64,000 nt of DNA from an uncultured virus (IMG/VR IMGVR_UViG_3300035698_035306) (taxonomy: Duplodnaviria; Heunggongvirae; Uroviricota; Caudoviricetes), in IMG/VR virus record IMGVR_UViG_3300035698_035306, one strand, 5' to 3'. Under the pieces are notes generated by a model. That model was not told where the DNA came from, made no database searches, and saw only the letters and a list, made by a program, of their open reading frames with translations. Both the position numbers and the translations under genes were made by a program. This document shows positions 1 to 60,222 of the stretch, piece after piece (position 1 is the stretch's first letter; the number at the start of each line of letters is the position of its first letter).

Positions 1-384
1 AATGTATTGAGAATGAAGTTCATCAGCAATCTTTTGAGCTTCTTTCCATTTCTTTCTACATACCTGTATTGTCTCATGCTTAGGTTCTGTTATCTTGACT
101 GTGTCTGGGCCACTCAATACAATCTTATTCAAAAACCATAAGAATCTGTTATAACTAAAGAGAGAAGCTTTAAGTGCTACCTTGTTTATAGCTCTTTTTA
201 ATCTTCTTCTATCGCAAATACCTAAATCTGATATTTTACTTCTTAATAAATCTGTATCTTCAATGTTTACATCTCCTTTAAGTTTAAAGTTTGTATTTTC
301 TTTTAAGAAGCTATTGATAATGTCTAATGCTTCTACTGTTCCATTTGTTAATTCGTTTGAATTATGTCCTATTAATTTTTTCAT
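1..384 (-). CDS. hypothetical protein, runs off the window (MKKLIGHNSNELTNGTVEALD...)
   Basis: Translated by hand; open from ATG 384 to the window edge. Confidence 0.7.
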   Translation of the reverse strand, partial: MKKLIGHNSNELTNGTVEALDIINSFLKENTNFKLKGDVNIEDTDLLRSKISDLGICDRRRLKRAINKVALKASLFSYNRFLWFLNKIVLSGPDTVKITEPKHETIQVCRKKWKEAQKIADELHSQYI

Positions 385-475
385 GATATTTCTTGTTTTT
401 GTTTTTAAAATTTTTGTTCTGTTTTGATTTGTACATATTTAGCAGGAATAACTGCTTTTTGAAATTCATGTAAAA

Positions 476-511
476 TTAAGGCGCTCGTAATCTAATCTAA
501 GTGTTTTCCAT
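476..511 (-). promoter_or_regulatory. amber-containing micro-ORF MENT*IRLRAP*
   Basis: ATG GAA AAC ACT TAG ATT AGA TTA CGA GCG CCT TAA, directly after the Pth2-like stop. Confidence 0.5.
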
Positions 512-512
512 T

Positions 513-854
513 TTATTTTTTATTTTTTAACATTAAGGGTAAATTGCTTGTCATTTTTTTAGAAATATCCCCAGGTTCTAGAGCGATTGAAGTAATTTCA
601 TTCCCTATATCAGGTTCTCTAAATACTGAAACTTTTACCCCTTTAGTTTCGGCAGTTGAGATTAATTTTTCTAAATGTTCTTGATTTGTTGCAGACAAAT
701 TTGCGATGTATTCTGAATTGTAATACCAGTCTGCGGTGACTTCTGGAAAGTCGAATGTGAATTTGATGGCTGAGTGAATTGCTTGCACACTTTGATAGCC
801 TGCTGCCATATCAGCTCTTGTAATTACGTAAAGTTTGTGATTAATCTAAGTCAT
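513..854 (-). CDS. peptidyl-tRNA hydrolase type 2 (Pth2)-like protein with in-frame TAG at codon 3
   Basis: MT*INHKLYVITRADMAAGYQSVQAIH...FREPDIGNEITSIALEP; the Pth2-type N-terminal strand KLYVITRAD lies upstream of the ORF-track start at 809. Confidence 0.7.
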
Positions 855-915
855 AATAGTATTTGTTTTTAATTATAGTTAAATATAAGATTTTGTTTCG
901 CAACTAGAAAGTTTA

Positions 916-1356
916 TTATCTTTTTAATTTTGTTAGTGCACTTATTAAATCATCGATTGCATCCATAGAAAATATAAAATGTCCTTTCTTAGATTTATCC
1001 CTTTGTATCTCTACTGAGCTAGCACTTCTAATTACATCAAAATCACCTTTAGATTTATCTTTAACAATTACAGTATTACCTTCGTTTACATTTCCTTCAA
1101 GTATTTTACCACCATTCTTACTAACTAATCTATTAAGATTTTGTTTTTGTTTAGTAGTAGCTACTTCAAACCAGATGTCGCCATTCTTTTTCTTTGTAAT
1201 ACCAAATGTAGGATGAACTGCATAATTACTACCATGACTTGTAATATAGTCTAGTGCACTGATAGTCTCATCTTTGTCACCAAAATTTACTTTTACGTAT
1301 TCTTTCTTAGCTTCATCTAAATTATGAAATTCTTCAAAGGTTTTAATATTGTCCAT
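916..1356 (-). CDS. putative internal head protein (capsid-targeting-like N-terminus MDNIKTFEEFHNLDE)
   Basis: Shared N-terminal motif; TATATA upstream. Confidence 0.6.
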   Translation of the reverse strand: MDNIKTFEEFHNLDEAKKEYVKVNFGDKDETISALDYITSHGSNYAVHPTFGITKKKNGDIWFEVATTKQKQNLNRLVSKNGGKILEGNVNEGNTVIVKDKSKGDFDVIRSASSVEIQRDKSKKGHFIFSMDAIDDLISALTKLKR

Positions 1357-1392
1357 CGATATGCTTTTGTTTTTATTATATATCGACAATAG

Positions 1393-1464
1393 TGGCCTGT
1401 ATCGGATTCGAACCGATAACCACTGGTTTTAGAGACCAGCGTTCTACCATTGAACTAACAAGCC
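1393..1464 (-). tRNA. amber suppressor tRNA (anticodon CTA), Trp-like body
   Basis: Cloverleaf with CTGGT-CTCTAAA-ACCAG; D and anticodon arms nearly identical to tRNA-Trp at 30988. Confidence 0.9.
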
Positions 1465-1476
1465 AAAAAGCTCTAA

Positions 1477-2607
1477 TTACTTAGAGCAAATTTCATATAA
1501 GTGTTTGTCATTATAATCCATTAAGAAGCCTGTAACTGATTCTACTTTCTTATCTTTCAATGAGAAATATAAACCTGTGAAACCTTTAACATCATATAAT
1601 TCACATGCTTTGAAAACTTCCATAGCATATCTTTTGTTCTCTTCTTTGGTAATGTTCTTTGGTAATCTATCTTTAAGAACTTCCCATACTGATTCAAGTT
1701 TTATCTTGAATGCATTGAATGTAGTTCTGGCTTTAAGTATCTCAACTCTTCTTTCAGGAAACGATGCAATGAACTCGTCAACTTCGTTTGTCTTTATAAT
1801 AGTCATGATTTTGTACTCAGCCATTGATGACTTTAAGTGATGAGCTGCAACGTAAGCAGGGTTCTTGATTTTGTTTCTTTCTTTACCATCCCATACTACA
1901 TAACCTTCTTCAGAATACTTCATGTTCTCAAAAGTCTTTCTTAAAGTCGCATAGTCTGCTTTCAAAGGAAATGATTTAACTACAGTTACACCAAGATTTT
2001 TAGATGTAGCTACAATATGTCCATAATCCATTTCATCCATTGACTCTAATTCTCTTACACCTAATAAGGTTACGTCAGATGTTCCGTGAGGACATACAAC
2101 GATATTCCAAGGTGTAGTTAATTCAAATGCATAAGTATGACCTGGTATGATAAGTTCATTCTCACCTGTAAGTGAGAACTCTCCTACTTTACCTCTAATT
2201 GTCTTTAAGAATAATTCAGCAAAAGTAATTGCACCACCATTAACATCACCTTCAGCTTCTGCAGTACCTGTAGTACCAGCATACCATCTTTTAACAACCC
2301 AATCGTAGTATAATTGTATTAAAGTCCCATCAACTTTCTCAAATACTCTAGCTTTGTTCCAGTCTAACTTTGCAGCATGACCTTCTTCAGCATTAAAGAA
2401 CTTTCTGAATGCTAACGACATAACTTTCCATGTCTTATTTTCTAAGATAAGACCTCTGCAATCTCTAACTTCTTCATGTGAAAAATTAGACTCAATTTGG
2501 TCGTACTTGATAAGTACTTTGTGACCGTAATGTCTATGCTTTAATTTGAAGTCTGCAAGAGTTTTTTCTAAACCATGCTCATGTAAGTATTTTTGTATTG
2601 CTAACAT
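1477..2607 (-). CDS. T4 Rnl1-like RNA ligase
   Basis: CRGLIL, FRKFFN, EKVDGTL (motif I), FEL, EGYVV, KIKN nucleotidyltransferase motifs. Confidence 0.88.
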   Translation of the reverse strand: MLAIQKYLHEHGLEKTLADFKLKHRHYGHKVLIKYDQIESNFSHEEVRDCRGLILENKTWKVMSLAFRKFFNAEEGHAAKLDWNKARVFEKVDGTLIQLYYDWVVKRWYAGTTGTAEAEGDVNGGAITFAELFLKTIRGKVGEFSLTGENELIIPGHTYAFELTTPWNIVVCPHGTSDVTLLGVRELESMDEMDYGHIVATSKNLGVTVVKSFPLKADYATLRKTFENMKYSEEGYVVWDGKERNKIKNPAYVAAHHLKSSMAEYKIMTIIKTNEVDEFIASFPERRVEILKARTTFNAFKIKLESVWEVLKDRLPKNITKEENKRYAMEVFKACELYDVKGFTGLYFSLKDKKVESVTGFLMDYNDKHLYEICSK

Positions 2608-2670
2608 TTTTATTTGTTTTTAAATTACTATACTAAAGTATCAAAAATATTTGACACTCCAAAGTATTTG

Positions 2671-3306
2671 TTACTTTAATTCTGTAGTATCTAATAGAGT
2701 AACACCTTTATTCATTAACTCAAAGTTGTTTGCAGTTAAGTCTTCTGCTATTCCTCTACAAGCATCCAATATAACAAATGTATTAAAACCTGCTTCTACA
2801 GAATCTAGAGCTGTAAATTTGACACATACATCAGTAGCTAATCCACAGATGAAAGTTGCTTCAATACCTCGCTTATTTAAAAACTCTGCTAAACCAGTTG
2901 ATGTCTTCTTGTCATTTTCTAAGAAACCTGAGTAACTATCTACATTAGGATTTTCACCTTTCTTAAAAATAAAAAGCTTGTCAATGTTTAAATCCAATTC
3001 TGGGTGGAACTCTGAACCGTGGTCATCTTGCATACAATGGTCAGGCCATAATTTCTGTACTGAACCATTTGGTAATTTATGGTCTGTAAATAATTTCTCT
3101 GCACATTCATCTTTATCATCAAAATGAGTTGATGCAAAAGAAACGTGAACTTTAGGATGGTTATCTTTAGTTAGAATAACACAATCAAATTTGCTTTTAT
3201 CTATACTGTTGATAATAGGGATTATTGCCGAAGCATTTGGGACTGCAAGTGAACCATCGATAAAATCGAGCTGTGGGTCTACTATAATAAGTGCTTTTTT
3301 ATTCAT
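2671..3306 (-). CDS. pncA: nicotinamidase
   Basis: LIIVDPQLDF-GSLAV, H-SF, LWPDHC, DSYSGF, GLATDVCV. Confidence 0.95.
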   Translation of the reverse strand: MNKKALIIVDPQLDFIDGSLAVPNASAIIPIINSIDKSKFDCVILTKDNHPKVHVSFASTHFDDKDECAEKLFTDHKLPNGSVQKLWPDHCMQDDHGSEFHPELDLNIDKLFIFKKGENPNVDSYSGFLENDKKTSTGLAEFLNKRGIEATFICGLATDVCVKFTALDSVEAGFNTFVILDACRGIAEDLTANNFELMNKGVTLLDTTELK

Positions 3307-3307
3307 T

Positions 3308-4183
3308 TTAAATAATTTTAGTTCTAGGTGTATTATAAGGATTGTCTCGTTTAAACTGTGATGCTTTCACTCGGTCAGAGACAATTTTCTTCGTGTTTTT
3401 TGGATATCTTCCAGTAGTTAAGAACATGTTGATTAACTCATCAACTTCACTATAACCACTTCGAGTATCTTTGTGTTCAAGTTTCCAATCTGGTAGGATT
3501 TGGTCTAAATCAGTATTTGTAATACCAAGACCATCAGTTGCATTACATCTAACACATGCAATGAGTGCTTGTTGTTTATCTGTAAGCTCATCAGCATAAC
3601 CTGTATAAAGCTCATTGTTAATAAGCCAGTCAGTCATTTCATAAACTTCAGTCTTCCATAAACTTTGAATTGGGCCAAAATCTCCAACATCACCATGTAA
3701 TGTCCAGAAACCTAATTTATATTCAGTCCAATTATCAGTTGATAAAACTAAACCAGACATCTTACTTGCTAAATTATAAAGATACATCATTCTCATTCGA
3801 GCTTTAATGTTACCCATTCTAATTTTGTATGGTCGAGAATTAAAATCATCATCTTCAATGTCACCTTCATTGTCATCCATTGAACGAAGTAAGAAAAATT
3901 CTTCATCTAATTTAACTTCTGCAAAATCGTGGCAAAATTCTTGGCCGACCATTCTTGCTCTTTCAGTTTCTTCAGGTGAATTTGACGTAATACTAATATA
4001 ACGGCCGATTAATTTAACTCCTAATTCGTCACAGACTGGTCTGACGAGAGCTGCTACAATTGCACTATCTATGCCACCTGAGATACCAAGTACAAGACTT
4101 TTAAGAGGACTACCTGTAAGATAGTCTCTTAAGTCTTTTCGTATATTTTCTACTGCAGGTTCGTAATTTTTAATTAAATCCAT
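3308..4183 (-). CDS. nadE: NH3-dependent NAD+ synthetase
   Basis: LGISGGIDS PP-loop, GNIKARMRM, STDN-TE-LGFWTLHGD, LWKTEV. Confidence 0.93.
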   Translation of the reverse strand: MDLIKNYEPAVENIRKDLRDYLTGSPLKSLVLGISGGIDSAIVAALVRPVCDELGVKLIGRYISITSNSPEETERARMVGQEFCHDFAEVKLDEEFFLLRSMDDNEGDIEDDDFNSRPYKIRMGNIKARMRMMYLYNLASKMSGLVLSTDNWTEYKLGFWTLHGDVGDFGPIQSLWKTEVYEMTDWLINNELYTGYADELTDKQQALIACVRCNATDGLGITNTDLDQILPDWKLEHKDTRSGYSEVDELINMFLTTGRYPKNTKKIVSDRVKASQFKRDNPYNTPRTKII

Positions 4184-4219
4184 GTCTTTATGTTTTAATG
4201 TTTAGTCAAATATAACAAA

Positions 4220-4783
4220 TTATTTTGACACGCCAAAGTTTTCGAGAACAATTTTGATAAAATCTGAAATAACAGTCTCATGACCAAATGCAAAATCATA
4301 TTCACTTGCACCTACATCTGTAACGTCTAACCATTTAACTTCTGTTACTTCGTTTACGCCACAGTTGATATTAGATACTTCAGGTAAATCACCATCTACA
4401 TCTACACAACAGCCATATCTTAATGTGATATTTTCTCTGTTAGAAGTGTGAGGATTATCACTTACATACCAAGGTTGTCTAAGTCTTTCATACACAAGCT
4501 TTTCTCCATTTAAGAAAGTGTCCATGTTTAAGTTTGTTTCTTCATTAATTTCTCTGAAGATTGCACCTGTACCATTTTCATTCCAATCGATGTAACCACA
4601 AGGAACACACCATTTGAAAGGTTGGTCCATATCTTTACCTCTACGTTCTACAAGAACATAAACGTTACCCTTGTTTCGTACGATTACTACACCGAGTACT
4701 GCTACTGAACGAGAGAAATGTATCTTTCGTTCTCCAATATTTTCTTTTGTTATAAGTTCGTTTTCTTTGTTTGAAAATTCCAT
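4220..4783 (-). CDS. Nudix hydrolase (ADP-ribose pyrophosphatase-like)
   Basis: PCGYIDWNE...AIFREINEETNL Nudix box; AFGH C-terminal motif. Confidence 0.88.
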   Translation of the reverse strand: MEFSNKENELITKENIGERKIHFSRSVAVLGVVIVRNKGNVYVLVERRGKDMDQPFKWCVPCGYIDWNENGTGAIFREINEETNLNMDTFLNGEKLVYERLRQPWYVSDNPHTSNRENITLRYGCCVDVDGDLPEVSNINCGVNEVTEVKWLDVTDVGASEYDFAFGHETVISDFIKIVLENFGVSK

Positions 4784-5322
4784 TCTGCTGTATTTTTATA
4801 AAGTTCGTAAATTGCTGCGATAGCTTGTTTTGTTATTTTGCGTGTTCCTATACCTGCGAAATTAGTAGGTAACAATGGCATATTATCGATTACTGAGAAC
4901 ATGCTTACAGTATCGTTGTATCTGAACCACAGATTATGGTTGATGTCATATAAATATACTGGTTTCTTGCAGTCTATTGCCATCTGAACAGCCCATCCAG
5001 TACCACCATCTACCTGTGTAAAGTTATTTTTGATAGTTCCTATTGCAAATATATTATCTGAATATTTTATCTGTGCCCAATTTCGGCATAATAAATTCAT
5101 GTAATTTTTAGGATTACGCTTCAATTTTTTATTTGCAAGCATTACTTTCTCAAAGCCCTCATCTTTATCAGCTTGAGAAATTTCAATATTACCATGTGGT
5201 GTTTTCTGCATCCAATAGTAATGATTGACAGTTGCACCTAAACGTTCTGCAACCTTTCCCCAAGTGTAATCGGAACCAATTGCTCCTCCTGAATGGCAAG
5301 TATAATTTTTTAATAAACTCAT
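4750..5322 (-). CDS. SLOG-superfamily nucleotide-binding protein
   Basis: HSGGAIGSD, GGTGWA and AGIGTR motifs; located in the NAD operon. Confidence 0.65.
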   Translation of the reverse strand: MSLLKNYTCHSGGAIGSDYTWGKVAERLGATVNHYYWMQKTPHGNIEISQADKDEGFEKVMLANKKLKRNPKNYMNLLCRNWAQIKYSDNIFAIGTIKNNFTQVDGGTGWAVQMAIDCKKPVYLYDINHNLWFRYNDTVSMFSVIDNMPLLPTNFAGIGTRKITKQAIAAIYELYKNTAEWNFQTKKTNL

Positions 5323-5323
5323 T

Positions 5324-6496
5324 TTATAAAGGTTTGTAGTCTATCATACGTTTAACTATGTCAATAGTTTCAGCGTTTCCAGTATGCTTTCCAGGTATGT
5401 CAGAAAGTTTAATTACATTCTCTTTATTAATCTTAAATAGTTTAATTACCATGTTAAGTGCTTTAACTCCAGGGAAATCATTCGTGTAGTTTGTTCCTAT
5501 ACCAAATGAACAGCCAATTCGACCATCGACGTAGTCTTGAATTTCTAATGCTGTAGTTGGATTTAAACCATCAGAGAAAACAATTGTCTTTGATTTTGGG
5601 TCAATTCCAAGTGATTCGTAGTGTGCAATTATCTTATCAGTAAATACTTTTGCATCTCCTGAGTCGTGGCGTACACCATCAAACAACTTAGCGTATTTCA
5701 TATCGAAGTCATTTAAGAATGTGTCTAGACCAAATGTGTCTGTCAATGCTATACCTAAATTTCCTTTATATGTTTCAACCCAAAGTTCTAATGCATGTTT
5801 ATTAGCGTGAGCATAACCAAGTACAGCAGCTACTCCTGATACCCATTCGTGAGCGAATGTTCCAATTGCTTTTGTATTATGATTGATTGCCATTTCAACG
5901 TTTGAAGAACCAATGAATGATTTTCCACCGTAGTTTTTAGCTATTCCAACTACTCTATCGTGGTTGGTGTATGAATAACGTCTACGTGTACCGAAGTCAA
6001 CGTTGGCAAGGTTATGCATATTAAAGTTTGAGAATTTCTTTTGGTCAAGGCCTTCTATGTAACCGATAGATTCTTTTGGCTCAATACCGTTTATCTTAAA
6101 GAATATCTCAGATATCTCAGACATCAGAATAACTTCCCAAAGTATAGTTCTGTACCAGTAACCTTGTATAATTATCTTTAATTCACCTTCATCTTCTTCA
6201 ATGATTATAACTTCAGAAGGATTAAATTTATATCCTGCTAGAAAATCGAAGAACATATTAGGTAAGAATGGGCATTTCACTTGGAATGCTTCTCGCTCCT
6301 CTCTTGACAGTGTAATTTCCCCAAATGTGTCAATACGTTTTCTTAATTCGTCAGCAACTCCAGACATGTCACGTGTCTTATCTCTTAAAACAAACTCATA
6401 TCTAACCTTTGCATCAGGGAAGTGTTGCATTACTGCCCACATCATAGTGAATTTATAAAGGTCGTTGTCTAAGATACTTCTCTTTTTTAAGTTCAT
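5324..6496 (-). CDS. pncB: nicotinate phosphoribosyltransferase
   Basis: DNDLYKFTM, DFGTRRR, GTFAHEW, GVRHDSGD, FSDGL, FGIGT, KLSD-PGK. Confidence 0.96.
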   Translation of the reverse strand: MNLKKRSILDNDLYKFTMMWAVMQHFPDAKVRYEFVLRDKTRDMSGVADELRKRIDTFGEITLSREEREAFQVKCPFLPNMFFDFLAGYKFNPSEVIIIEEDEGELKIIIQGYWYRTILWEVILMSEISEIFFKINGIEPKESIGYIEGLDQKKFSNFNMHNLANVDFGTRRRYSYTNHDRVVGIAKNYGGKSFIGSSNVEMAINHNTKAIGTFAHEWVSGVAAVLGYAHANKHALELWVETYKGNLGIALTDTFGLDTFLNDFDMKYAKLFDGVRHDSGDAKVFTDKIIAHYESLGIDPKSKTIVFSDGLNPTTALEIQDYVDGRIGCSFGIGTNYTNDFPGVKALNMVIKLFKINKENVIKLSDIPGKHTGNAETIDIVKRMIDYKPL

Positions 6497-6500
6497 AATA

Positions 6501-6695
6501 CTATATTTTAGTAAGATTTTTTAATTGTTCAATGATAATTGGTAAATTCTTTAAAGCTCTTTCTTCAGATTCTCTTAAATGTGTTTCTGTATTTGGGTTT
6601 GGAACTCTACCTTTAATTTGAAAGTAAGTTGAGATAGGTTGCAGCTTATTTCTAATGTCTGCTACGATATCTTCTATTTCTTGTTTCTTGCTCAT
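6501..6695 (-). CDS. hypothetical protein
   Basis: ORF at the head of the NAD operon, behind a TACTTTAG promoter. Confidence 0.6.
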   Translation of the reverse strand: MSKKQEIEDIVADIRNKLQPISTYFQIKGRVPNPNTETHLRESEERALKNLPIIIEQLKNLTKI

Positions 6696-7013: not shown

Positions 7014-7152
7014 GTGTATTGTTTTATTTTTATTATATATCGCCCAAAAAAGCAGCTGGGTTACTGAACTCCGATTGAGTTTCAAAATAAACCAGCTGCT
7101 TCTGTATATTAGTTAATAGGTTTGCTGAATGATTAAAAATGATTCTGTAAGC

Positions 7153-8820
7153 CTATTTCAGTTTCTTCTCAAGCTTGTTGAACTTGTCTAAAGCTTCCTT
7201 GTCTTTCTCATTATTCCACTTAAGGAAATAATCTACTAAAGTAGCAACATCTTTTACTGAATGTGTTTTTTCTTTAATAACCGTGAATACATCGTTAGCT
7301 TCGATACCAATTTCATCATCTTTCATTTCAAGACGAATCATCTGTGCATATTTCTTTTCTAATTTCTCAAGTTCTTTAACTACACCAGATAACCATTTTG
7401 AATCTTTAACAATCGGTTCATTCTTAGCATGAGGAATTGTCAAATAATAAGGTACTCTACTGGCTTCATTACAAAACTCTTCAAAGTTCATAAAATTTTC
7501 CATATTCTACTTTGCAAAATATTTTACTTTTCCACCTTCTCTTTTAGTCTCAATTTGCTTAGTATCATTCAAATACCTTAAGATGTTTTCATAGTTCTTA
7601 TAATGCATTGGGTCTTTATAGTTCTTAAGAACCCCCTTCTGTGTATTAATAAATCTATGTACGTCTGATTGTATAATACCAGGATTAGATTTTAAGTGTG
7701 CAACTAATGAGTCTGCAGCCTTTTGATTCTCTTGCCCAAGTTTGGGTGTTTTTGAAGATTCATTACAAAACTCTTCAAAGTTCATAAAATTTTCCATGTT
7801 GTATATCTTTATATTTTATTCGCAGTTAGCTATTTCACCATCTTTTACAGCTGACTTTAATTCTGCATCTGAAAAATCAATTTCAGTATCATCGAATTGA
7901 ATTGAACTTACGAATTGATGTGTTCCGCCTTTTTTACCTTTATATGTTAATGCACCCATCCAAGAGTTCATACCTAAATCAGCTACACAATAATCAGTAC
8001 CTGTCTTTAAATCTTTAACATTCTTTATGATACTACCTAATGATAAGTCATTGTCGTCAAGGTTATCTTCGTCAAATTCTTGCTTTTCTACTACAGTGCT
8101 TTCACTTACAGTACTTAAAGCCTTTTTGATACCTGCTTCAAATGCTTTAACTCTCATAACACCATTAAATTCCATTTCATCACGGAATATTCTATGTGAG
8201 CCATGACTTAAAACGTATTTAGTTGGACCATCACCTTCATCAGTAATAGCATCAAAATCTAAATCATAAATTTCACCATTTGCAGATACTTTAGTTTTAT
8301 AACCAATTGTCCATTTTCTACCGTTACGTTGCATAGCATCCATACCGTCATTTGTAATTGCATTACCATTTGTTTTTTCAAACTCAATGTCAAAACCAGC
8401 TTTAATAATCATCTTTGAAAGATTACCAACAAATCTGTTGTCTAATTTCTTTCCTTTAGAACCATGTAGCTTCTCTGCAATTGCTATAGGTATAATAGCT
8501 GCATCAAACATCTTCTGAATTTCTTCTACAGTAGCACCTAATTCTAATGCCTTCTTACCAAAGTCATCAAATGGTCCACGGTATTCTTTCCATTTATCAT
8601 CATATTTAAGTTCAGCTGCCTTAAGTTTTAAACCACTGACAAATCTTGCAATCGCCTTATCTTTATCTTTTAATTTGTTTGCAACATCTTCACCATCTTT
8701 ACCAGCTGTTACTAAATCAAGCATGCGTTGCCAGTCTTTAGTTGATATTTGACCAGGTTTGGCCTTTTTCTCATTTAAAGACTCTTGGAAATCTTCAAAT
8801 AACATTACATATTTTTCCAT
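7153..8820 (-). CDS. three putative internal head proteins (7153-7503, 7507-7797, 7816-8820)
   Basis: N-termini MENFMNFEEFCNE (twice, identical) and MEKYVMLFEDFQESLNE. Confidence 0.65.
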
Positions 8821-15302: not shown

Positions 15303-15613
15303 AATAGACGAGGTAATTAGGCTCCTGTTACGTTTTTCAACGTCAACAACATTTGTCTATTCTCCTCAACCCGACTATTATAGACCGTTGCTAAATCTAA
15401 GTCTGTTTGAGTTTCACTCCGGTAGTGAAAACGATTGATTATGGGTCTTTCGGGGTTACTGGTTTGTAAGGTGGTACTATTAACCCTTTTTCCTTTTGTC
15501 TTCCAGTTACCTGGTTTTGGTAACCTTACCTAACAGCTTTAACTATCAATCTCCTACCTGCACTTTAGTGGCCAAATTTCCTCTCCGTAGAGCGTTGTTG
15601 TCACTCGTCTATT
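15303..15613 (-). ncRNA. rnpB: RNase P RNA (compact)
   Basis: P1 AATAGACGAG/CTCGTCTATT; CR-I GAGGAAATTTGGC; P2 CAACAAC/GTTGTTG; CR-IV TAGACAAATG; CR-V AACAGGAGCCTAATTA. Confidence 0.8.
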
Positions 15614-16077
15614 TCTATTCCTCTATCCAATCTGTGTAAAATTCTTAAGGTTCTACCATTTGGATGGATATACTTATTATTATTTAAAAATTCTTTATTA
15701 TCTAATTGTAAAAATTCATTTGCATATGTTCCGATTGCACCACTTCTTGAAATACCAGCTGCACAATGTACAATTAACAAATTACATTTTTCTTTATCAA
15801 TACTTTCTAAGAACTTAATTAATTTCTTACCTTGCTCAAATGAAAAACCCTTAGCAGTATATGTTGCGGTTTCCAATTCAGCTTTCTCAATATCATCAAA
15901 ATCGAAATTCAAAACATTCACATGGTCTTCTTTAAACCAATGTTGGTAACCTTGTTCAAATGTTTCCACTACAGAAATTAAAGCTAACTTTGTTTTCTCT
16001 TCAATGTTACCATCATTAAGATTATGTTTCTTCATTGTTTCATCGAACTGCCTCTGTGGTACTATTAAAATCTTCAT
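15601..16077 (-). CDS. tyrosine/dual-specificity phosphatase-like protein
   Basis: F-DD acid loop and VHCAAGISRS P-loop. Confidence 0.85.
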   Translation of the reverse strand: MKILIVPQRQFDETMKKHNLNDGNIEEKTKLALISVVETFEQGYQHWFKEDHVNVLNFDFDDIEKAELETATYTAKGFSFEQGKKLIKFLESIDKEKCNLLIVHCAAGISRSGAIGTYANEFLQLDNKEFLNNNKYIHPNGRTLRILHRLDRGIEIDE

Positions 16078-16263
16078 CTATTCAAAGTTAATTTGTTTAT
16101 TCTCTCGTCTGTTGTAGGTCTTCTTAGACTTATGTGTCGCATGCATAGATATAAATCCATTACCGAACTCTAATTCTGCCTCTCTACTGCCTCTTCTGTT
16201 TGCTTTGATATAATCAATATCTGTCAGTGTAGGTTTCTTTATGTTCTTTTTGCGCTTTGCCAT
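16078..16263 (-). CDS. small basic protein, possible ArfA-like ribosome rescue factor
   Basis: KANRRGSREAELE...HKSKKTYNRR, loosely resembling the ArfA KGKGSY tail. Confidence 0.4.
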   Translation of the reverse strand: MAKRKKNIKKPTLTDIDYIKANRRGSREAELEFGNGFISMHATHKSKKTYNRRENKQINFE

Positions 16264-16331
16264 TATTTCTATTTATTATTAATTACAAGATAAAAGTAAC
16301 AAAAAATATTCAGAAGCCAAAGTATTAACCT

Positions 16332-22312: not shown

Positions 22313-22346
22313 TGTTTTTTCAATAATTTAAAGAACTTATTATTTG

Positions 22347-22418
22347 CGGAGAAGATTGGACTCGAACCAACGACGCACGGTGTTCAAACCGCTGCTCTAC
22401 CAACTGAGCTACCTCTCC
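22347..22418 (-). tRNA. atypical tRNA with a 6-nt anticodon loop (TTGAAC)
   Basis: Canonical D and T arms; GCGGT/ACCGT stem. Confidence 0.6.
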
Positions 22419-26186: not shown

Positions 26187-27161
26187 TTAAGTTAGTTCCA
26201 GGATTAACTTTACAGCCTTATCGAATCTCTCATCCCAGTTGCCAGATATGGTTTTGTAGTCAATACCTGCATCTTCTAGTTCTCTTATATGATAATCCTT
26301 TAATTTGTTTCTATCTTCTTCAGTCAGTCTAGAACCATCTTGAATGTGAGGTACATCGTTATCTAAGAATAAGTACAAATCATAGTTGTTATAATCATCT
26401 ACAAATTGAGGATATTTAAGTTCTTTATTAAATAGGAATTTCGAATAAGACTTCGTTATATTGATGTCAGTATCTACAATCATAATCTTATTAGAATAAT
26501 TATCATTGAAAAATACTCTCAGTGCATGTGCTTTTGCAATCTTTTCTAAGTCTTCATACTTAACATCATAAACGCCGTCTGTTAATTCTCGGCCCATTTC
26601 ACCGACATAATAGCCTGCGAAATGTTCTGTAAGTCTCTTAGCTAAAGTGGTTTTACCAGTCGATTCTGTCCCGACTACACAAATCTTCTTGTAATAATAT
26701 TTCTGAACTGGGTCAGGTATTTTATCCCAATTAATATACGGATTTTCTCTAATCATTGTAGCTGATACTGGAAGAGTAGTTCTTTCGATATCATAGTTAA
26801 TACATTCAATGCCCATAAAATCTGCAAGATACTGTCCGTATTCTTCAGATGATATGATAACATCTAAGTCGAAGTTGTAACTTAATATCTTATCAGCCCA
26901 TTTTTTTGTAGCTTCTTCATCAGGAACTGATGATGATGTTAGATTATTTTTATTGTAAGACATATAATTAATATGTACTTTAACATCATTTCCAAATACA
27001 TCATCTAGAAATTCAATTCTTGTCAGAGCATTTATATGTTCATCTTGTTCTGCACACAATAATAGAATTACTTGGTCACATTGTGTTTTTGCAAATTCAA
27101 CCATTGCAATATGCCCATTATGTAATGGCATAAATTTACCTAATACTAGTCCTCTTTTCAT
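26187..27161 (-). CDS. nadR: NadR-type NMN adenylyltransferase / nicotinamide riboside kinase
   Basis: GKFMPLHNGH, SATMIR, GTESTGKTT, DTD, QDGSR. Confidence 0.92.
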   Translation of the reverse strand: MKRGLVLGKFMPLHNGHIAMVEFAKTQCDQVILLLCAEQDEHINALTRIEFLDDVFGNDVKVHINYMSYNKNNLTSSSVPDEEATKKWADKILSYNFDLDVIISSEEYGQYLADFMGIECINYDIERTTLPVSATMIRENPYINWDKIPDPVQKYYYKKICVVGTESTGKTTLAKRLTEHFAGYYVGEMGRELTDGVYDVKYEDLEKIAKAHALRVFFNDNYSNKIMIVDTDINITKSYSKFLFNKELKYPQFVDDYNNYDLYLFLDNDVPHIQDGSRLTEEDRNKLKDYHIRELEDAGIDYKTISGNWDERFDKAVKLILELT

Positions 27162-30937: not shown

Positions 30938-30987
30938 GCCGTATACTTATTTTTATTATATATCAGCTTTATTTAGTTAACTCTTTG

Positions 30988-31061
30988 CACGCCTGGTAGG
31001 AATCGAACCTACAACCACTGGTTTTGGAGACCAGCATTCTACCTAATTGAACTACAGACGT
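30988..31061 (-). tRNA. tRNA-Trp(CCA)
   Basis: Loop CTCCAAA. Confidence 0.92.
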
Positions 31062-46400: not shown

Positions 46401-49400
46401 TGACCTTCATTCAAGCTTTCTAAATCTTCTAAACTTTCTAAAAGTTCATTGTTCTTGAATTGTTCTAATGTTAAAATATATTTTTGTGTCTCCATTTAGT
46501 TTCCAGTTCTTTTTCTGATTTTCATTAATGCTGACTGTAAATCCTTTGAAATACCTTTTGCATCCATGTTAGTTAACTCATCAGCAGCATCTTTATAGAA
46601 TGTAACTGCCCATCCAAGAAGATTTTCCCACATGTCATTATCAGCATATTTCATAATCTCAATTGCATCGTCAGATTCATCTCTTGATTTTTCATTTGTC
46701 TTACCTTCTGTAACCTTTTCATTAGCTCTTGTTTGCATCAAGATATCAGCTACAGAATCTGAAGGTTCAGTATCTCCGTTTGGAATATAATGACGAAGAA
46801 TACCACCATCTGGGTCTACACCAATTTCAAATTCATCAAAGTCATTTTTATGATAATCATTTTCGCTTTTTAATTTCGACTTAATATAAATCACTGCACC
46901 ATCCCAATCATCAGGATAATCTGGCTTCTTCATTTTAATAGATGAAAAGTTCTTAGAACGTTTTAACGCCTTGAACATCTTATCTAATAATGCATTGTCT
47001 TTACTTGATTTCTCATTTATTACAGATTCATCAAATTTCCGTGCAACTAATAAATCGCTAAGGTTATCAAACCATTCACCTTTATCTTTCTTCTCACCTT
47101 CATCTTTTACGAAATACTTACCGTTTTTCTTCTGAACATATAACGTATCATAATGCCACTTGTTGTCTTCATACTCTTCAAAACCTACACTTCCTAATGT
47201 AGCTTCATCTTCAGTAGACATTTTATCAAACTTCTTAGCTTCATTGATACCATGAAATTCCTCAAATGTTTTTACTACTTTTTCCATATTCTATTTATTA
47301 TATTTTTTCTTTAAATCTTTATCATGTTTCAACCAAGCCTCAACTTTCTTTGTCAACTTAGTATCTTTATTCTTCTTTGCAAATGACTTCAACTTTGTTA
47401 TATTACTCATGTTTAAACCATATCCGAATTTACCAAGCATTCCTGCTTTACCACCACCGTGCCATCTATTACCGAAATAATATTCATCTGGCCAGTTAGC
47501 TTCAATATGACTTGTAATCTCCTCATCAAATGGCTTATAACTTATAGCGTCACCGTATGTTAATTCAGCTCCTTTAGCTTCGTTTAGATTTTCAAACAAT
47601 CCATTTATAATTGTATCAACCTTCTTCTTAGCTTTCTTATCTGATGTATAGTCATCTAAGCCGCTTAACAAAGCTTGATAAATTTTACTTCTTGTTCCTG
47701 CTTTAAATTGTTTTGCCTCAATCTTAACATCTCTGCCATCAGATAATGTCAATTCAATATAACTGGGATTCACATACTCAGAATATGTAGCATATCCTTT
47801 TGCAATAGAATTATCTAATCTTGTGAATGTCTTACCAGTAACTTGAACTTCTAATCCTTCTGATAAAAATTCTTTAAAACTTTCGTGTATTATCATATCA
47901 ATTCGCTTTTCTTTGTTTTATTTATTCTTGAAAAAATCAACTAAATATGATTTTAACTTGCTAATCTTATTTGCTGGCACATAATAATAATCATGATACA
48001 CTCCCATCTGAGTACTATTTTCCTCATCATACTTCTTACCTAAATTATCTTTTATATAACCACTGACAGTATCATACTCTGGCTTATCTAAACTTAACCA
48101 AGTTTCATTGAATGTGATATTATCAGTTAATCTCCAAACATCATATTGTACTGCACTGAATTGATTACTATCTGCTCTTCCAACAAATCCATTTCCATAA
48201 TCTAATAACTGACCTATTCTAAGCGCATCTGCTCTTATAATATAGTTCTTTCTTAAATACCACGGAAAATCTAACCAAGCACCCTTAGCGAACTTCAACT
48301 TATTTGTTGCAATCTTCTTAACCAATTCCAATGTCAATAAACTCTTATCACTCTTATATGCTTTTTTGAATTTAACACCCTTCTGAGGGTTAAATGATGT
48401 GTTCATGTAAAATACAGGAGCTTCATCTACTTGAGTTATCGCAACTAATGCAAACAAAGCTTGGTCTGCTTCAGGTATTCCATCAAAACTAAAATTACCA
48501 CCTGTCTCTGTAACTGAAACAGTAGCACCTTCCTTATTTGTATAAGTCAACTGACCAACTTTACTATCATAACCCAATGGTGTATACCCCTTAGAATTAA
48601 GTTCCTTCTTGTATTCCGTCATACCAGTATTATACTTAACCTTTTTGGCTTCATTTAATAAATATTTATTAAATTTTTCGAAATTTTCATATATTTTCAT
48701 ATTCCTCGTATTCTTTTTAGTACATCCGTCTCGCGGGTAGGGCCGGGACAGTTTTTTCGTTTTCGCAACCTGCTGGAGCAGCTGGTACTAAGCCTTCTTA
48801 TATTCCTTGTAAAAGGCAGAACTCTTAGCATCTTGCCACTTCGGTATATCTTCATACGCACTCACAATAGCTGTATAATAACCACTGTTCGTATCAATTC
48901 CATAATCTCCTGGATTGTCATAGTAATCTACAACATACTCATAAAATTCTTTAAAACCTAATTTCTCACCACTCAAATTCTTCAATTCTTTAGCCGCCGT
49001 CTTCGCATCAATCAATTCCTCAACATGGTCACTTGGATGCTTCTTCTCATTTACAAAGTCTTTATAACTTTCTGCAATTAATTTTGTCATATTATTTCTT
49101 TATTTTGTCTAATTTAATTATATCTAATACCTTCTTGTAAGGCGTAAAATACTTCTGCTCACTTCCAGTATGATTGTTTATAATCTTAATCTTCCACCCA
49201 AAATCACCAGTAGTTTTCTCAACCTCAACATGGTCATTCTTTCCATCAAACAATGTCCACTTTCCAATATTCTCCTTCACCCATTGCTCCAACTCCTTAA
49301 TCTTCGTCTTCGCATGAAAATAATATTGCTCATTGTGATTCAACTGTAATACAGTCAAAGGCTTAGAAGCCTCATTTATATGCTCCACCTCAATACTCTC

Positions 49401-58500: not shown

Positions 58501-59386
58501 AAGATATACACGAGTAAGATAGTTAAACAAAAGAATATTAATTATGGCAGGCATAAAGAATTTAGAGACTTATAAAGTACAAGCATTGAAGACAAAGTGT
58601 AAGGTTATTGAGGCGACTATTAAGAAGACGTACATCACATATCCACATGAGCCAATGACTGAAGAAATGATTAAGGAAGAATGGTTCGGTAGATATATGA
58701 ATCAGTCACATGCATATAAAGATGGCAGTCATATTGGTAACGCAGATGAGTTGGTTGACTTAAAATTCTTGAAAGAGGGTGAAGAAGTTATCGATGAGAA
58801 GACTGAGTTATTGGATTGCATTCAAAACTTTTTGGGTTTCTTTGATACACCCATTGCAAAGATGAAGATGGAAAGTAAAGATTGTGAATTGGTAAGACAA
58901 ATAGGTCGTGATTTAATGACTAAATATGGGCGTAATTATAGAGGAGTTTAATATGGTAACATACGAAGATTTATTTTTCTACATAGCGATAACAGTAGCA
59001 GTTGTAGTATTCATTAATGTAGGTGTAAAAATAGGATTATTTAGAGATGCATGGAGTTGCGTCAAACATGATATATTTAGAATTAAAAGGTAATGGCAGA
59101 TATACGATTTGATTGGAAGAAGTTCAGAGATGATAAGCCTGAGATAGGTAGTCGTATTGTAGTACAGTATCTGAATTGGTATAATGGGTACATAGTACTT
59201 TGTTCTTATGTTGGTGTAAAAGATGGTAAACATCAATTGATTAATCTTAGTAAAACTGATTTGAGAGCAATAGACAATCATACTATCTCAACATATAGAA
59301 CATATGAAATTCCGAACATAGAAGAATATGATGGATATGACCCTCATTCTTTTGAGTGGGATTATTTTAATATAATTGAAAAATAA
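55523..59386 (+). CDS. cluster of small hypothetical early genes (55523, 56114, 56316, 56640, 56893, 57365, 57567, 58084, 58544, 59093), several membrane proteins
   Basis: Tightly packed plus-strand ORFs behind early promoters. Confidence 0.6.
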
Positions 59387-59631
59387 TGGATAAGGCTTGG
59401 TGGGTATACATTGTAAAGTGTGCAGATGGTAGTTTATATACAGGGATATCACCTGATGTAGATAAGAGAATCAGTAAACATAACAAAGGAAAAGGTGCTA
59501 AATATACTAAGACGAGGTTACCAGTTGTATTGAAGTATTCAAAAGAGTATGAGAATAGGAGTGTTGCAAGTAAAGAAGAATATAGAATCAAACAGTTATC
59601 AAGAAAACAGAAAGAATTATTAATAAAGTAG
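59386..59631 (+). CDS. GIY-YIG nuclease (YhbQ/UPF0213-like)
   Basis: WVYIVKCADGSLYTG...R...HNKGKGAKYT...E--IK. Confidence 0.92.
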   Translation: MDKAWWVYIVKCADGSLYTGISPDVDKRISKHNKGKGAKYTKTRLPVVLKYSKEYENRSVASKEEYRIKQLSRKQKELLIK

Positions 59632-59637
59632 AATAAA

Positions 59638-60222
59638 ATGGAGAAAGAGAACAGGACAATGGTACGAAGTTACCAAGATTTAAGAACAGTAGTAGGTATG
59701 ATTGGTATATTTTTACCATTCGCGTTATTAATTGGCAATTGGGGATTCGAACCTTCTATTAGTCAATATTACTACACTGTCATGAGGAATTTATTCGTTG
59801 GTGCACTTGTTGCCGTTAGTACATTTATGTTCTTCTATGTTGGATATGATAAGACAGATAATTGGCTATCAGGTATAGTCGGTGTATTTGCATTAGGAGT
59901 ACCATTCTTTCCGTGTGAGGGTTGGACAAGACCTTATCATTTGGCGAGCGCATTAATTTTATTTTCAATGTTAGGTGTATTTTCACTATTTAGATTTACT
60001 AAAGGTGACCCGAACATGACAACAAGAAAGAAACAAAGGAATGTTATTTATAAGATATGTGGATATACAATATTTGGCTCAATAACAGCTCTTATTATCT
60101 ACTTTTTATCAGGTTTAGATATACCTACATTAATATTTTGGTTAGAAGTTGCAATGTTAGAAGCATTTGGCATAGCATGGTTGACTAAAGGTGGTATAAT
60201 ACTAAAAGATAAAGTTAAGTAA
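59638..60222 (+). CDS. DUF998-like multi-pass membrane protein
   Basis: SISQYYYT, H--SA--LF, E--ML-AFG--WL-KG. Confidence 0.7.
   Translation: MEKENRTMVRSYQDLRTVVGMIGIFLPFALLIGNWGFEPSISQYYYTVMRNLFVGALVAVSTFMFFYVGYDKTDNWLSGIVGVFALGVPFFPCEGWTRPYHLASALILFSMLGVFSLFRFTKGDPNMTTRKKQRNVIYKICGYTIFGSITALIIYFLSGLDIPTLIFWLEVAMLEAFGIAWLTKGGIILKDKVK

Follow-up and report, generated by a model that had tools for sequence, protein, structure and literature searches.

We analysed a stretch of 64,000 nucleotides (nt) from an uncultured virus (IMG/VR record IMGVR_UViG_3300035698_035306), referred to here as the window; all counts given for the window are limited to these 64 kilobases (kb). The window is phage-like and AT-rich, with a G+C content of 31–40%, and as far as approximately 55 kb its genes are encoded by the minus strand. 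Near its beginning, this strand carries an amber suppressor transfer RNA (tRNA), a gene resembling peptidyl-tRNA hydrolase 2 (Pth2) with an in-frame TAG at its third codon, and a micro-open reading frame (ORF) in which another in-frame TAG precedes a terminal Arg-Ala-Pro-stop. The two TAGs are termed gate 1 and gate 2. An earlier note, made from the sequence alone, had interpreted this arrangement as an amber read-through module, and its overall interpretation is supported by the analysis described below.

The suppressor tRNA (1392..1464, minus strand), one of 43 tRNA genes in the window, folds into a cloverleaf with a CUA anticodon (CTA in DNA) and was identified by both ARAGORN and Rfam (tRNA family, 74.7 bits). 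As the earlier note had it, the tRNA adjoins an RNA ligase gene, which is of the T4 type (1477–2607, minus strand; PF09511, E-value 1.1e-12) and lies directly upstream. The homologous suppressor tRNA of one related locus (L065) shows compensatory changes in its stems. The closest paralog in the window is a tRNA-Trp(CCA) at 30987–31061, which is 79% identical and has the same anticodon arm except for the change of CCA to CTA. Judged by sequence similarity, a Trp-like origin is clear only for the suppressor tRNA of the window. Amino-acid typing of 90 suppressor tRNAs by similarity was tried and set aside, with weak and scattered best matches and 19 of the 90 reaching at least 75% identity. An E. 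coli tRNA-Trp bearing a CUA anticodon inserts mainly Gln. In eight related loci (L025, L026, L031, L034, L044, L050, L122, and L104), two suppressor tRNAs of differing sequence are found close together, the closest pairs being about 80 nt apart. ARAGORN further lists tRNA-like genes whose anticodon is undetermined and given as the two bases "(ga)", one in the window (22346–22418, minus strand) and one in L002 (3610–3679), the latter just downstream of the Pth2-like gene.

The Pth2-like gene (513..854, minus strand) comprises 113 codons if the UAG is read, and runs ATG(854–852) ACT TAG(848–846) ATT ... TAA(515–513). The read-through product matches the Pfam family PTH2 (PF01981) with 26.7 bits against a cut-off of 23, from residue 7 to residue 106 and over profile positions 2–113 of 115. 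A profile built from 18 family members matches the solved Pth2 chains 24bt, 2zv3, 1rzw, 1wn2, 1q7s, and 1xty, with E-values of 3e-10 to 1e-2. The AlphaFold model of the read-through product has a mean predicted local distance difference test (pLDDT) score of 94.1, and Foldseek aligns it with archaeal and human Pth2 structures (2zv3, 1q7s, 3erj, 1wn2, and 1xty) at template modelling (TM) scores of 0.72–0.79 and a probability of 1.00. By its predicted structure, the product adopts the Pth2 fold; hydrolase activity is only predicted. Strand 1 of the model spans residues 8–13, upstream of Met16 (ATG at 809), and a start at Met16 would delete it, in agreement with the earlier proposal that the conserved first strand is gained only by reading through ATG ACT TAG ATT. 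Met16 is not conserved among homologs, and the entry for this gene in the protein database is a 98-residue form that starts at an internal ATG.

Residues R13, Q24, H27, W43, L53, F78, E80, D82, and T88 are invariant in the family. In the HMMER alignment, Tyr20 of the phage protein falls, with a two-residue deletion, on the second Lys of the G-K-G-K loop of Pth2 from M. jannaschii. Since the Lys of this loop is catalytic in Pth2, the phage enzyme may differ from the canonical one. A second recurrent gate site is observed in a clade of short Pth2-like genes, four of which have an in-frame TAG within the loop that follows helix 1 (L075, on the same contig as L006, and L007, L121, and L123), in contexts such as ..YPDqWKNE.., ..KGPqVTWNNG.., and ..QNHqGSEWKNN.. 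(q, TAG). Two genes of the long clade, L020 and L052, have a TAG at the same loop besides their N-terminal gate.

To place gate 1 (846..848, minus strand; direct reading) among homologs, relatives were gathered from viral and metagenome contigs. The 126 usable rows yielded 111 distinct Pth2-like genes that share 29–53% identity, except for the gene on metagenome contig L091, which is identical; this contig matches the window at 100% over 1621 nt and may share its source. A gate was defined as an ATG, one to eight codons, a stop, and at most 12 codons to strand 1, with no ATG in between. By this definition, 79 of the 111 genes are gated, with the stop at codons 2–9, which is TAG in 77 genes and TAA in two. 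The earlier note had named sense codons in homologs as the result that would speak against it; the outcome was the opposite, with no sense codon at the gate in any of the long-form genes examined. Of 84 genes with a TAG at this site, 79 have an in-frame ATG one to eight codons before it, compared to 15.8% of 7,231 control TAGs. The base following the gate stop is A in 64 genes, G in 13, C in two, and T in none; in E. coli, amber codons followed by a purine are suppressed more readily. Among window ORFs of at least 45 codons, the Pth2-like gene alone has this architecture. A Q at codon 3 of database homologs was initially read as a sense codon, but the DNA of relatives has TAG there. The Q probably originates from gene calling under another code (code 15) and was dropped as evidence for Gln.

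Similar arrangements also occur in cultured phages. In the mycobacteriophages Myrna (gp84) and Catera (gp153), the gene begins with GTG/ATG-TAG-GTG and a tRNA(CTA) is found 130–250 nt downstream. In Tenacibaculum phage pT24, the gene begins with ATG-AAA-TAG-ATA, and the annotated start lies further downstream.

The gated genes are linked to suppressor tRNAs. A tRNA(CTA) is present on the gene strand in 42 of the 54 gated loci with at least 2 kb on both flanks, and all 49 tRNA(CTA) genes counted there share the strand of the Pth2-like gene. CTA is the anticodon of 85 of the 231 tRNAs in the related loci. The short, ungated clade has a tRNA(CTA) in 15 of 18 similarly flanked loci, in nine of these at most 72 nt from the gene, so that the Pth2-like family is linked to suppressor tRNAs even without a gate. 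Furthermore, both TAA-gated loci (L070 and L104) carry a tRNA(TTA), that is, tRNA(UUA), and no tRNA(CTA). The stop type of the gate thus covaries with the anticodon of the neighbouring suppressor. Limiting release factor 1 (RF1), which the earlier note had considered as an input, is not supported by these variants, which argue for dependence on the tRNA and not on RF1.

The second gate lies within a leader micro-ORF (476..511, minus strand), recognized both by direct reading and by the strict pattern given below. A single base separates its ATG from the stop codon of the Pth2-like gene. The leader reads MENT-UAG-IRLRAP-stop, with the codons ATG(511–509) GAA AAC ACT TAG(499–497) ATT AGA TTA CGA GCG CCT TAA(478–476). 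Gate 2 (497–499, minus strand) is codon 5 of this 11-codon leader, and the R-A-P codons (479–487, minus strand) are followed directly by the TAA at 476–478. The repetition of ACT TAG ATT and the RAP-stop ending reported earlier are therefore both present. The 10-mer ACTTAGATTA is common to both gates and its only exact copies are at 493–502 and 842–851.

A scan downstream of Pth2-like genes for an ATG, one to six codons, and a TAG followed by a purine gave a density of 1.7 per kb, three times that found elsewhere (0.51 per kb). Twenty-six of these entries are at most 16 codons long; 20 of them have exactly R-[G/P/A]-P-stop at their end, and three others come close to it. The strict pattern M-x(0-7)-UAG-x(1-7)-R-[G/P/A]-P-stop is found in 31 of the 111 loci, always on the gene strand, and at a single site in the window (476–511). 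Shuffling the loci in 20 replicates gave one match in total, corresponding to approximately 0.05 expected per replicate. Among the 31 leaders, 17 end in RGP, 13 in RPP, and one, that of the window, in RAP. Six sense codons separate the UAG from the stop in 26 of them. As their final stop codon, 30 leaders use TAA and one TGA, and none uses TAG. The Arg is written with five codons and the Pro with four, indicating that selection acts on the leader peptide. Besides MENTqIRLRAP in the window, examples are MKKTqIKYRGP, MKqIKNRGP, MKETqINIRPP, and MTqIIRPP (q, UAG). Short ORFs ending in R-[G/A/P]-P-stop without a UAG are absent from the window, and no leader of this type was found in the 5-kb loci of Myrna, Catera, and pT24. 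One leader subfamily has His-Trp right before the UAG (MK-x-HW-q-I..; L028, L033, L036, L042, L092, L103, L105, L107, L111, L112, and L113), which suggests, from the sequences, a conserved context 5' of the gate.

The minimum-energy structure calculated with RNAfold places the end of the leader in a helix with the start of the next gene. The 5' arm (461..481, minus strand) is made up of the final Pro codon and the stop together with the 15 nt that follow, and the 3' arm (368..392, minus strand) contains the downstream ATG at 384–382. We compared duplexes between leader ends and start regions over 29 distinct loci. Matched pairs have a mean of −11.97 kcal/mol and mismatched pairs of −6.58 kcal/mol (standard deviation 3.06), and none of 20,000 permutations reached the matched mean. 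In 16 of the 29 loci, the leader end pairs best with its own start region, which ranks among the top three in 23, and the duplex covers the AUG in 27. A prior test on 20 loci, in which three starts were set by hand, had the same outcome.

The gene whose start is covered (1..384, minus strand) has 136 codons, the last eight of which are past the start of the window; its full length was read from L091, where the C-terminus is ..EKGDYYK. In the related loci, the downstream gene follows the leader at a distance of 42–257 nt. These genes belong to at least three unrelated families, and searches of Pfam, PHROGs, and the ESM Atlas gave no lead on them. Homologs of the window's downstream gene follow the same leader in six other loci (L015, L054, L061, L069, L103, and L110).

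We propose that these elements form a suppressor-tRNA-operated switch in an otherwise standard-code phage, a reading to which, from the sequence evidence, we assign a probability of about 0.68. It builds on the two gates and their conservation, the covariation of stop and anticodon, the linkage between gene and tRNA, the predicted fold, and the locus-specific complementarity between leader end and start region. The tRNA(CUA) would serve two targets dedicated to it, which lie some hundreds of bases downstream. At gate 1, a ribosome would end after two residues when the suppressor is lacking, and would make the full 113-residue protein, including strand 1, when it is present. At gate 2, termination at the UAG would leave the ribosome about 15 bases short of the helix, which would stay closed. 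If the UAG is read, the ribosome would move six codons further and pause at R-x-P-stop, a sequence that would correspond to the RAPP/RGPP arrest motif with a stop replacing the last Pro. A ribosome paused on the 5' arm would melt the helix and free the downstream AUG. As a single base separates the Pth2-like stop from the leader ATG, the ribosomes that enter the leader may be those that have come through gate 1, and the response would then be steeper. For the switch to work in this way, the tRNA has to be made and aminoacylated, ribosomes have to pass the UAGs and stall at R-x-P-stop, and the stall has to turn the downstream gene on rather than off; each of these points is inferred. The arrest role suggested earlier for the RAP ending fits the R-[G/P/A]-P-stop conserved in 31 of 111 loci together with the putative start-hiding helix.

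Several observations weigh against this switch. The fold in the window is weak, with a z-score of −1.74 and 13 of 200 shuffled sequences folding as well. A tRNA(CTA) is lacking within 2.5–3 kb in 12 of the 54 well-flanked gated loci, and a leader lies at most 700 nt downstream in 22 of the 69 gated loci with enough sequence, that is, about a third of the gated genes are accompanied by one. Many loci are mutually related, and the counts given above are not counts of independent events. In the RAPP and RGPP peptides, the fourth position is a Pro-tRNA in the A site, while here it is a stop, so that any arrest would be at termination; termination at R-x-P-stop is not mentioned in the parts of PMC10951233 and PMC12992588 that deal with arrest.

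Other observations favour a start-stop or re-initiation arrangement, in which ATG-x-TAG is an upstream mini-ORF of two or three codons, the protein starts after the TAG, and the tRNA is not needed. The codon next to the stop is ATT, ATC, ATA, ATG, or CTG in 56 of 83 tallied genes; translation can start at these codons, though for most of them weakly. In Myrna and Catera, the second GTG is the annotated start and is preceded at 7 nt by a Shine-Dalgarno-like run; with this good spacing, initiation after the TAG may occur, and these two cases are ambiguous. Yet the codon following the gate, which is ATT in 48 genes, is GTA, GTT, or AAC in 17, and we know of no evidence for start-codon use of these three, so that a start after the stop cannot be general. 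Re-initiation would also work with any stop, whereas 77 of 79 gates are TAG although TAA dominates in AT-rich genomes, and it does not account for the tRNA(TTA) beside both TAA gates, for the tie of the family to tRNA(CTA) in ungated loci, or for a leader that requires read-through to reach its conserved R-x-P-stop. We consider re-initiation unlikely as a general explanation. An artefact or decay might be suspected from a single genome, a very short ORF, and the lack of enrichment of ACTTAGATTA at one mismatch (11 matches, 12.7 expected); the TAG would then stem from a sequencing error or from nonsense mutation of a decaying gene, and the micro-ORF would have arisen by chance. This explanation is refuted by conservation and hardly deserves further weight: the gate is kept in 79 diverged genes, the leader recurs far above the shuffled expectation, and contig L091, although it may be of the same source, is identical. 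The sequencing error that the earlier note had foreseen as a possible refutation is thereby discarded.

The window could also be an early, standard-code-compatible region of a "code 15" phage, its TAGs being ordinary late sense codons with no regulatory role. A model of phage stop-codon recoding has reportedly been put forward by Borges et al. 2022. Recoded phages that encode their own suppressor tRNAs are described in passages of two reports (PMC10879173, PMC9523058), and in code-15 phages (TAG as Gln; crAss-like, Lak, and others), as those passages present them, a phage tRNA(CUA) likewise reads UAG while the host uses the standard code. The window contains no structural genes, only auxiliary ones, and recoding of this phage's own late genes would therefore be unseen, a further point against the proposed switch. 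Moreover, 14 of the 111 family members have a TAG after strand 1, seven of them inside the conserved body; several TAGs after strand 1 are apparently the genes' own stops. Against recoding, the TAG is fixed at codons 2–9 in 77 genes and occurs after strand 1 in those 14 only, and UAG is otherwise an ordinary stop. Among window ORFs of at least 100 codons, defined stop to stop, TAG ends 10 of 81 and TAA 63 of 81; in the gated loci, TAG ends 97 of 735. The TAGs at 6501 and 7153, cited earlier as normal stops, do end coding-looking ORFs. Over 57 gated loci, coding coverage rises from 0.79 to 0.86 when TAG is read as sense, a gain no larger than that with TGA (0.87). Five gated relatives of 248–429 kb, T4-like by Gp23, have matches to capsid, terminase, and sheath without internal stops, with open frames of 553–589 residues for the capsid (four of five records), 624–670 for the terminase (three), and 434 and 908 for the sheath (two). 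Code-15 genomes have many genes, above all late ones, cut by in-frame TAGs with homology on both sides; the window has one gated gene and a leader. The earlier statement that the genome is not recoded therefore stands for these 64 kb and for the late genes of five relatives, and does not extend to the phage's own late genes, which are outside the window. Recoding without regulation is, in our estimate, improbable, and even in a recoded phage position-specific gates and an arrest leader would still sense the code switch.

As UAG remains an ordinary stop elsewhere and in-frame UAGs are confined to two position-conserved sites, the tRNA looks like a regulator of few targets rather than a genome decoder. 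Where a TAG links two ORFs in the same frame, the five best pairs were considered as interrupted genes and rejected in favour of adjacent genes; four of the five have a new ATG 0–2 codons past the TAG. The pairs were chosen for being in frame, and no enrichment is claimed. TAG-ended genes followed by such an ATG are at 46496–47917, 15601–16272, 7033–7815, and 59380–60222, with 47918–49099 less clear; at such junctions, an active amber suppressor would yield fusion proteins.

The remaining features around the module are auxiliary. Between the tRNA and the Pth2-like gene, the ORF list contains a frame of 146 residues (916..1356, minus strand), for which Pfam and PHROG searches returned no family and only a sub-threshold match to BRCT_2. 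It is one of a group of small paralogous genes with the N-terminus M-(E/D)-x-x-x-x-F-E-(E/K)-F-..-EAKK, other members of which lie at about 47264, at two sites near 7480–7797, and near 48700, all on the minus strand. A terminator-like hairpin (1470..1487, minus strand) between the stop of the RNA ligase gene and the tRNA was found by a consensus scan only, which gave two such sites against 0.8 expected. An Rfam search of positions 1–3000 matched the tRNA alone, and no theta ribozyme was found beside it. The auxiliary gene content comprises, besides the RNA ligase and the tRNAs, a nicotinamide adenine dinucleotide (NAD) salvage set at 2671–6496 and 26187–27161 (minus strand), with an isochorismatase-like ORF, NAD synthetase, a Nudix hydrolase, nicotinamide phosphoribosyltransferase, and nicotinamide mononucleotide (NMN) adenylyltransferase. 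In a megablast search of a phage collection with the first 4.2 kb, no cultured phage was matched. Past the start of the window, L091 (2722–4105) contains further ORFs downstream of the module, which by motif inspection resemble an HD-type phosphohydrolase, a P-loop kinase, and a nucleotidyltransferase; roles in tRNA repair are a guess.

The proposed switch shares elements with several known systems. Autoregulation of prfB (RF2) uses an early in-frame UGA as a sensor of termination capacity by means of a +1 frameshift, and the two-codon bar minigenes of phage lambda are tied to the demand for peptidyl-tRNA hydrolase (Pth). Both recall the early in-frame stop and the Pth2-like neighbour of the leader, but the output here would be read-through by a dedicated tRNA and not a frameshift. 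In ermC-type attenuation, SecM-secA, and MifM-yidC2, a helix concealing a start codon is opened by a ribosome that pauses where the leader ends, similar to the duplex that covers the AUG in 27 of 29 loci. Control through such a helix responds to an antibiotic in ermC and to export activity in MifM, whereas access to the pause here would be set by stop suppression.

According to the relevant passages of PMC12992588, RAPP and RGPP arrest ribosomes robustly even when the N-terminal context is short and varied. ApdA, ApdP, ApcA, and SecM (RAGP), as described in portions of three papers (PMC12992588, PMC10951233, PMC7897499), have an Arg-(Ala/Gly)-Pro core where a small ORF ends, upstream of the controlled gene; the window leader likewise ends in Arg-Ala-Pro upstream of a gene on the same strand. 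The leaders described here differ in their length of 8–14 residues, in being found in phages, in having neither a secretion signal nor a Sec or YidC gene, and in their proposed input, which would be read-through of an internal UAG and not a pulling force on the nascent chain. With Pro followed by a stop (TAA in 30, TGA in one), they would work like an arrest peptide by analogy, while not being members of the family as defined.

In the literature on phage suppressor tRNAs, recoding, PTH2, amber leader peptides, and arrest, we found no description of such a module. The nearest design is a synthetic TAG-in-leader device, the "Uaa transcriptional switch", in which, by the passages of PMC6412442 that present it, a TAG is placed in a tna/trp leader and downstream expression needs a suppressor tRNA. 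That device is engineered and relies on Rho-dependent transcription termination, whereas the natural phage element appears to act on a start codon. PTH2 in jumbo phages was reported by Iyer et al. 2021 (PMC7824862); the word "suppressor" occurs 0 times in the main text of that paper, and its PTH2 passages make no link to an in-frame stop or to a tRNA(CUA).

Why standard-code phages carry suppressor tRNAs is an open puzzle, to which the module offers conserved targets and a switch logic. Dozens of distant phages keep the design, suggesting that the tRNA is most likely a switch for few genes and not a means of rewriting the code. The module looks like a natural counterpart of engineered TAG-in-leader switches, and would widen the range of the RAPP and RGPP arrest cores to phages, perhaps also to arrest during termination. 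Annotation of this family by gene callers is routinely wrong, with the mycobacteriophage entries starting the gene after the TAG; these mycobacteriophage versions provide a cultured system for experiments. More tentatively, and at somewhat less than even odds, phage suppressor tRNAs in standard-code jumbo phages might be trans-acting translational regulators of small amber-gate regulons rather than decoding tools. These regulons would include a new class of termination-arrest leaders, with a UAG before R-x-P-stop, through which read-through would unmask a start codon. The Pth2-fold protein, linked to the tRNA even without a gate, would complete a feedback loop by acting either on the suppressor or on the peptidyl-tRNA(Pro) of the arrested ribosome.

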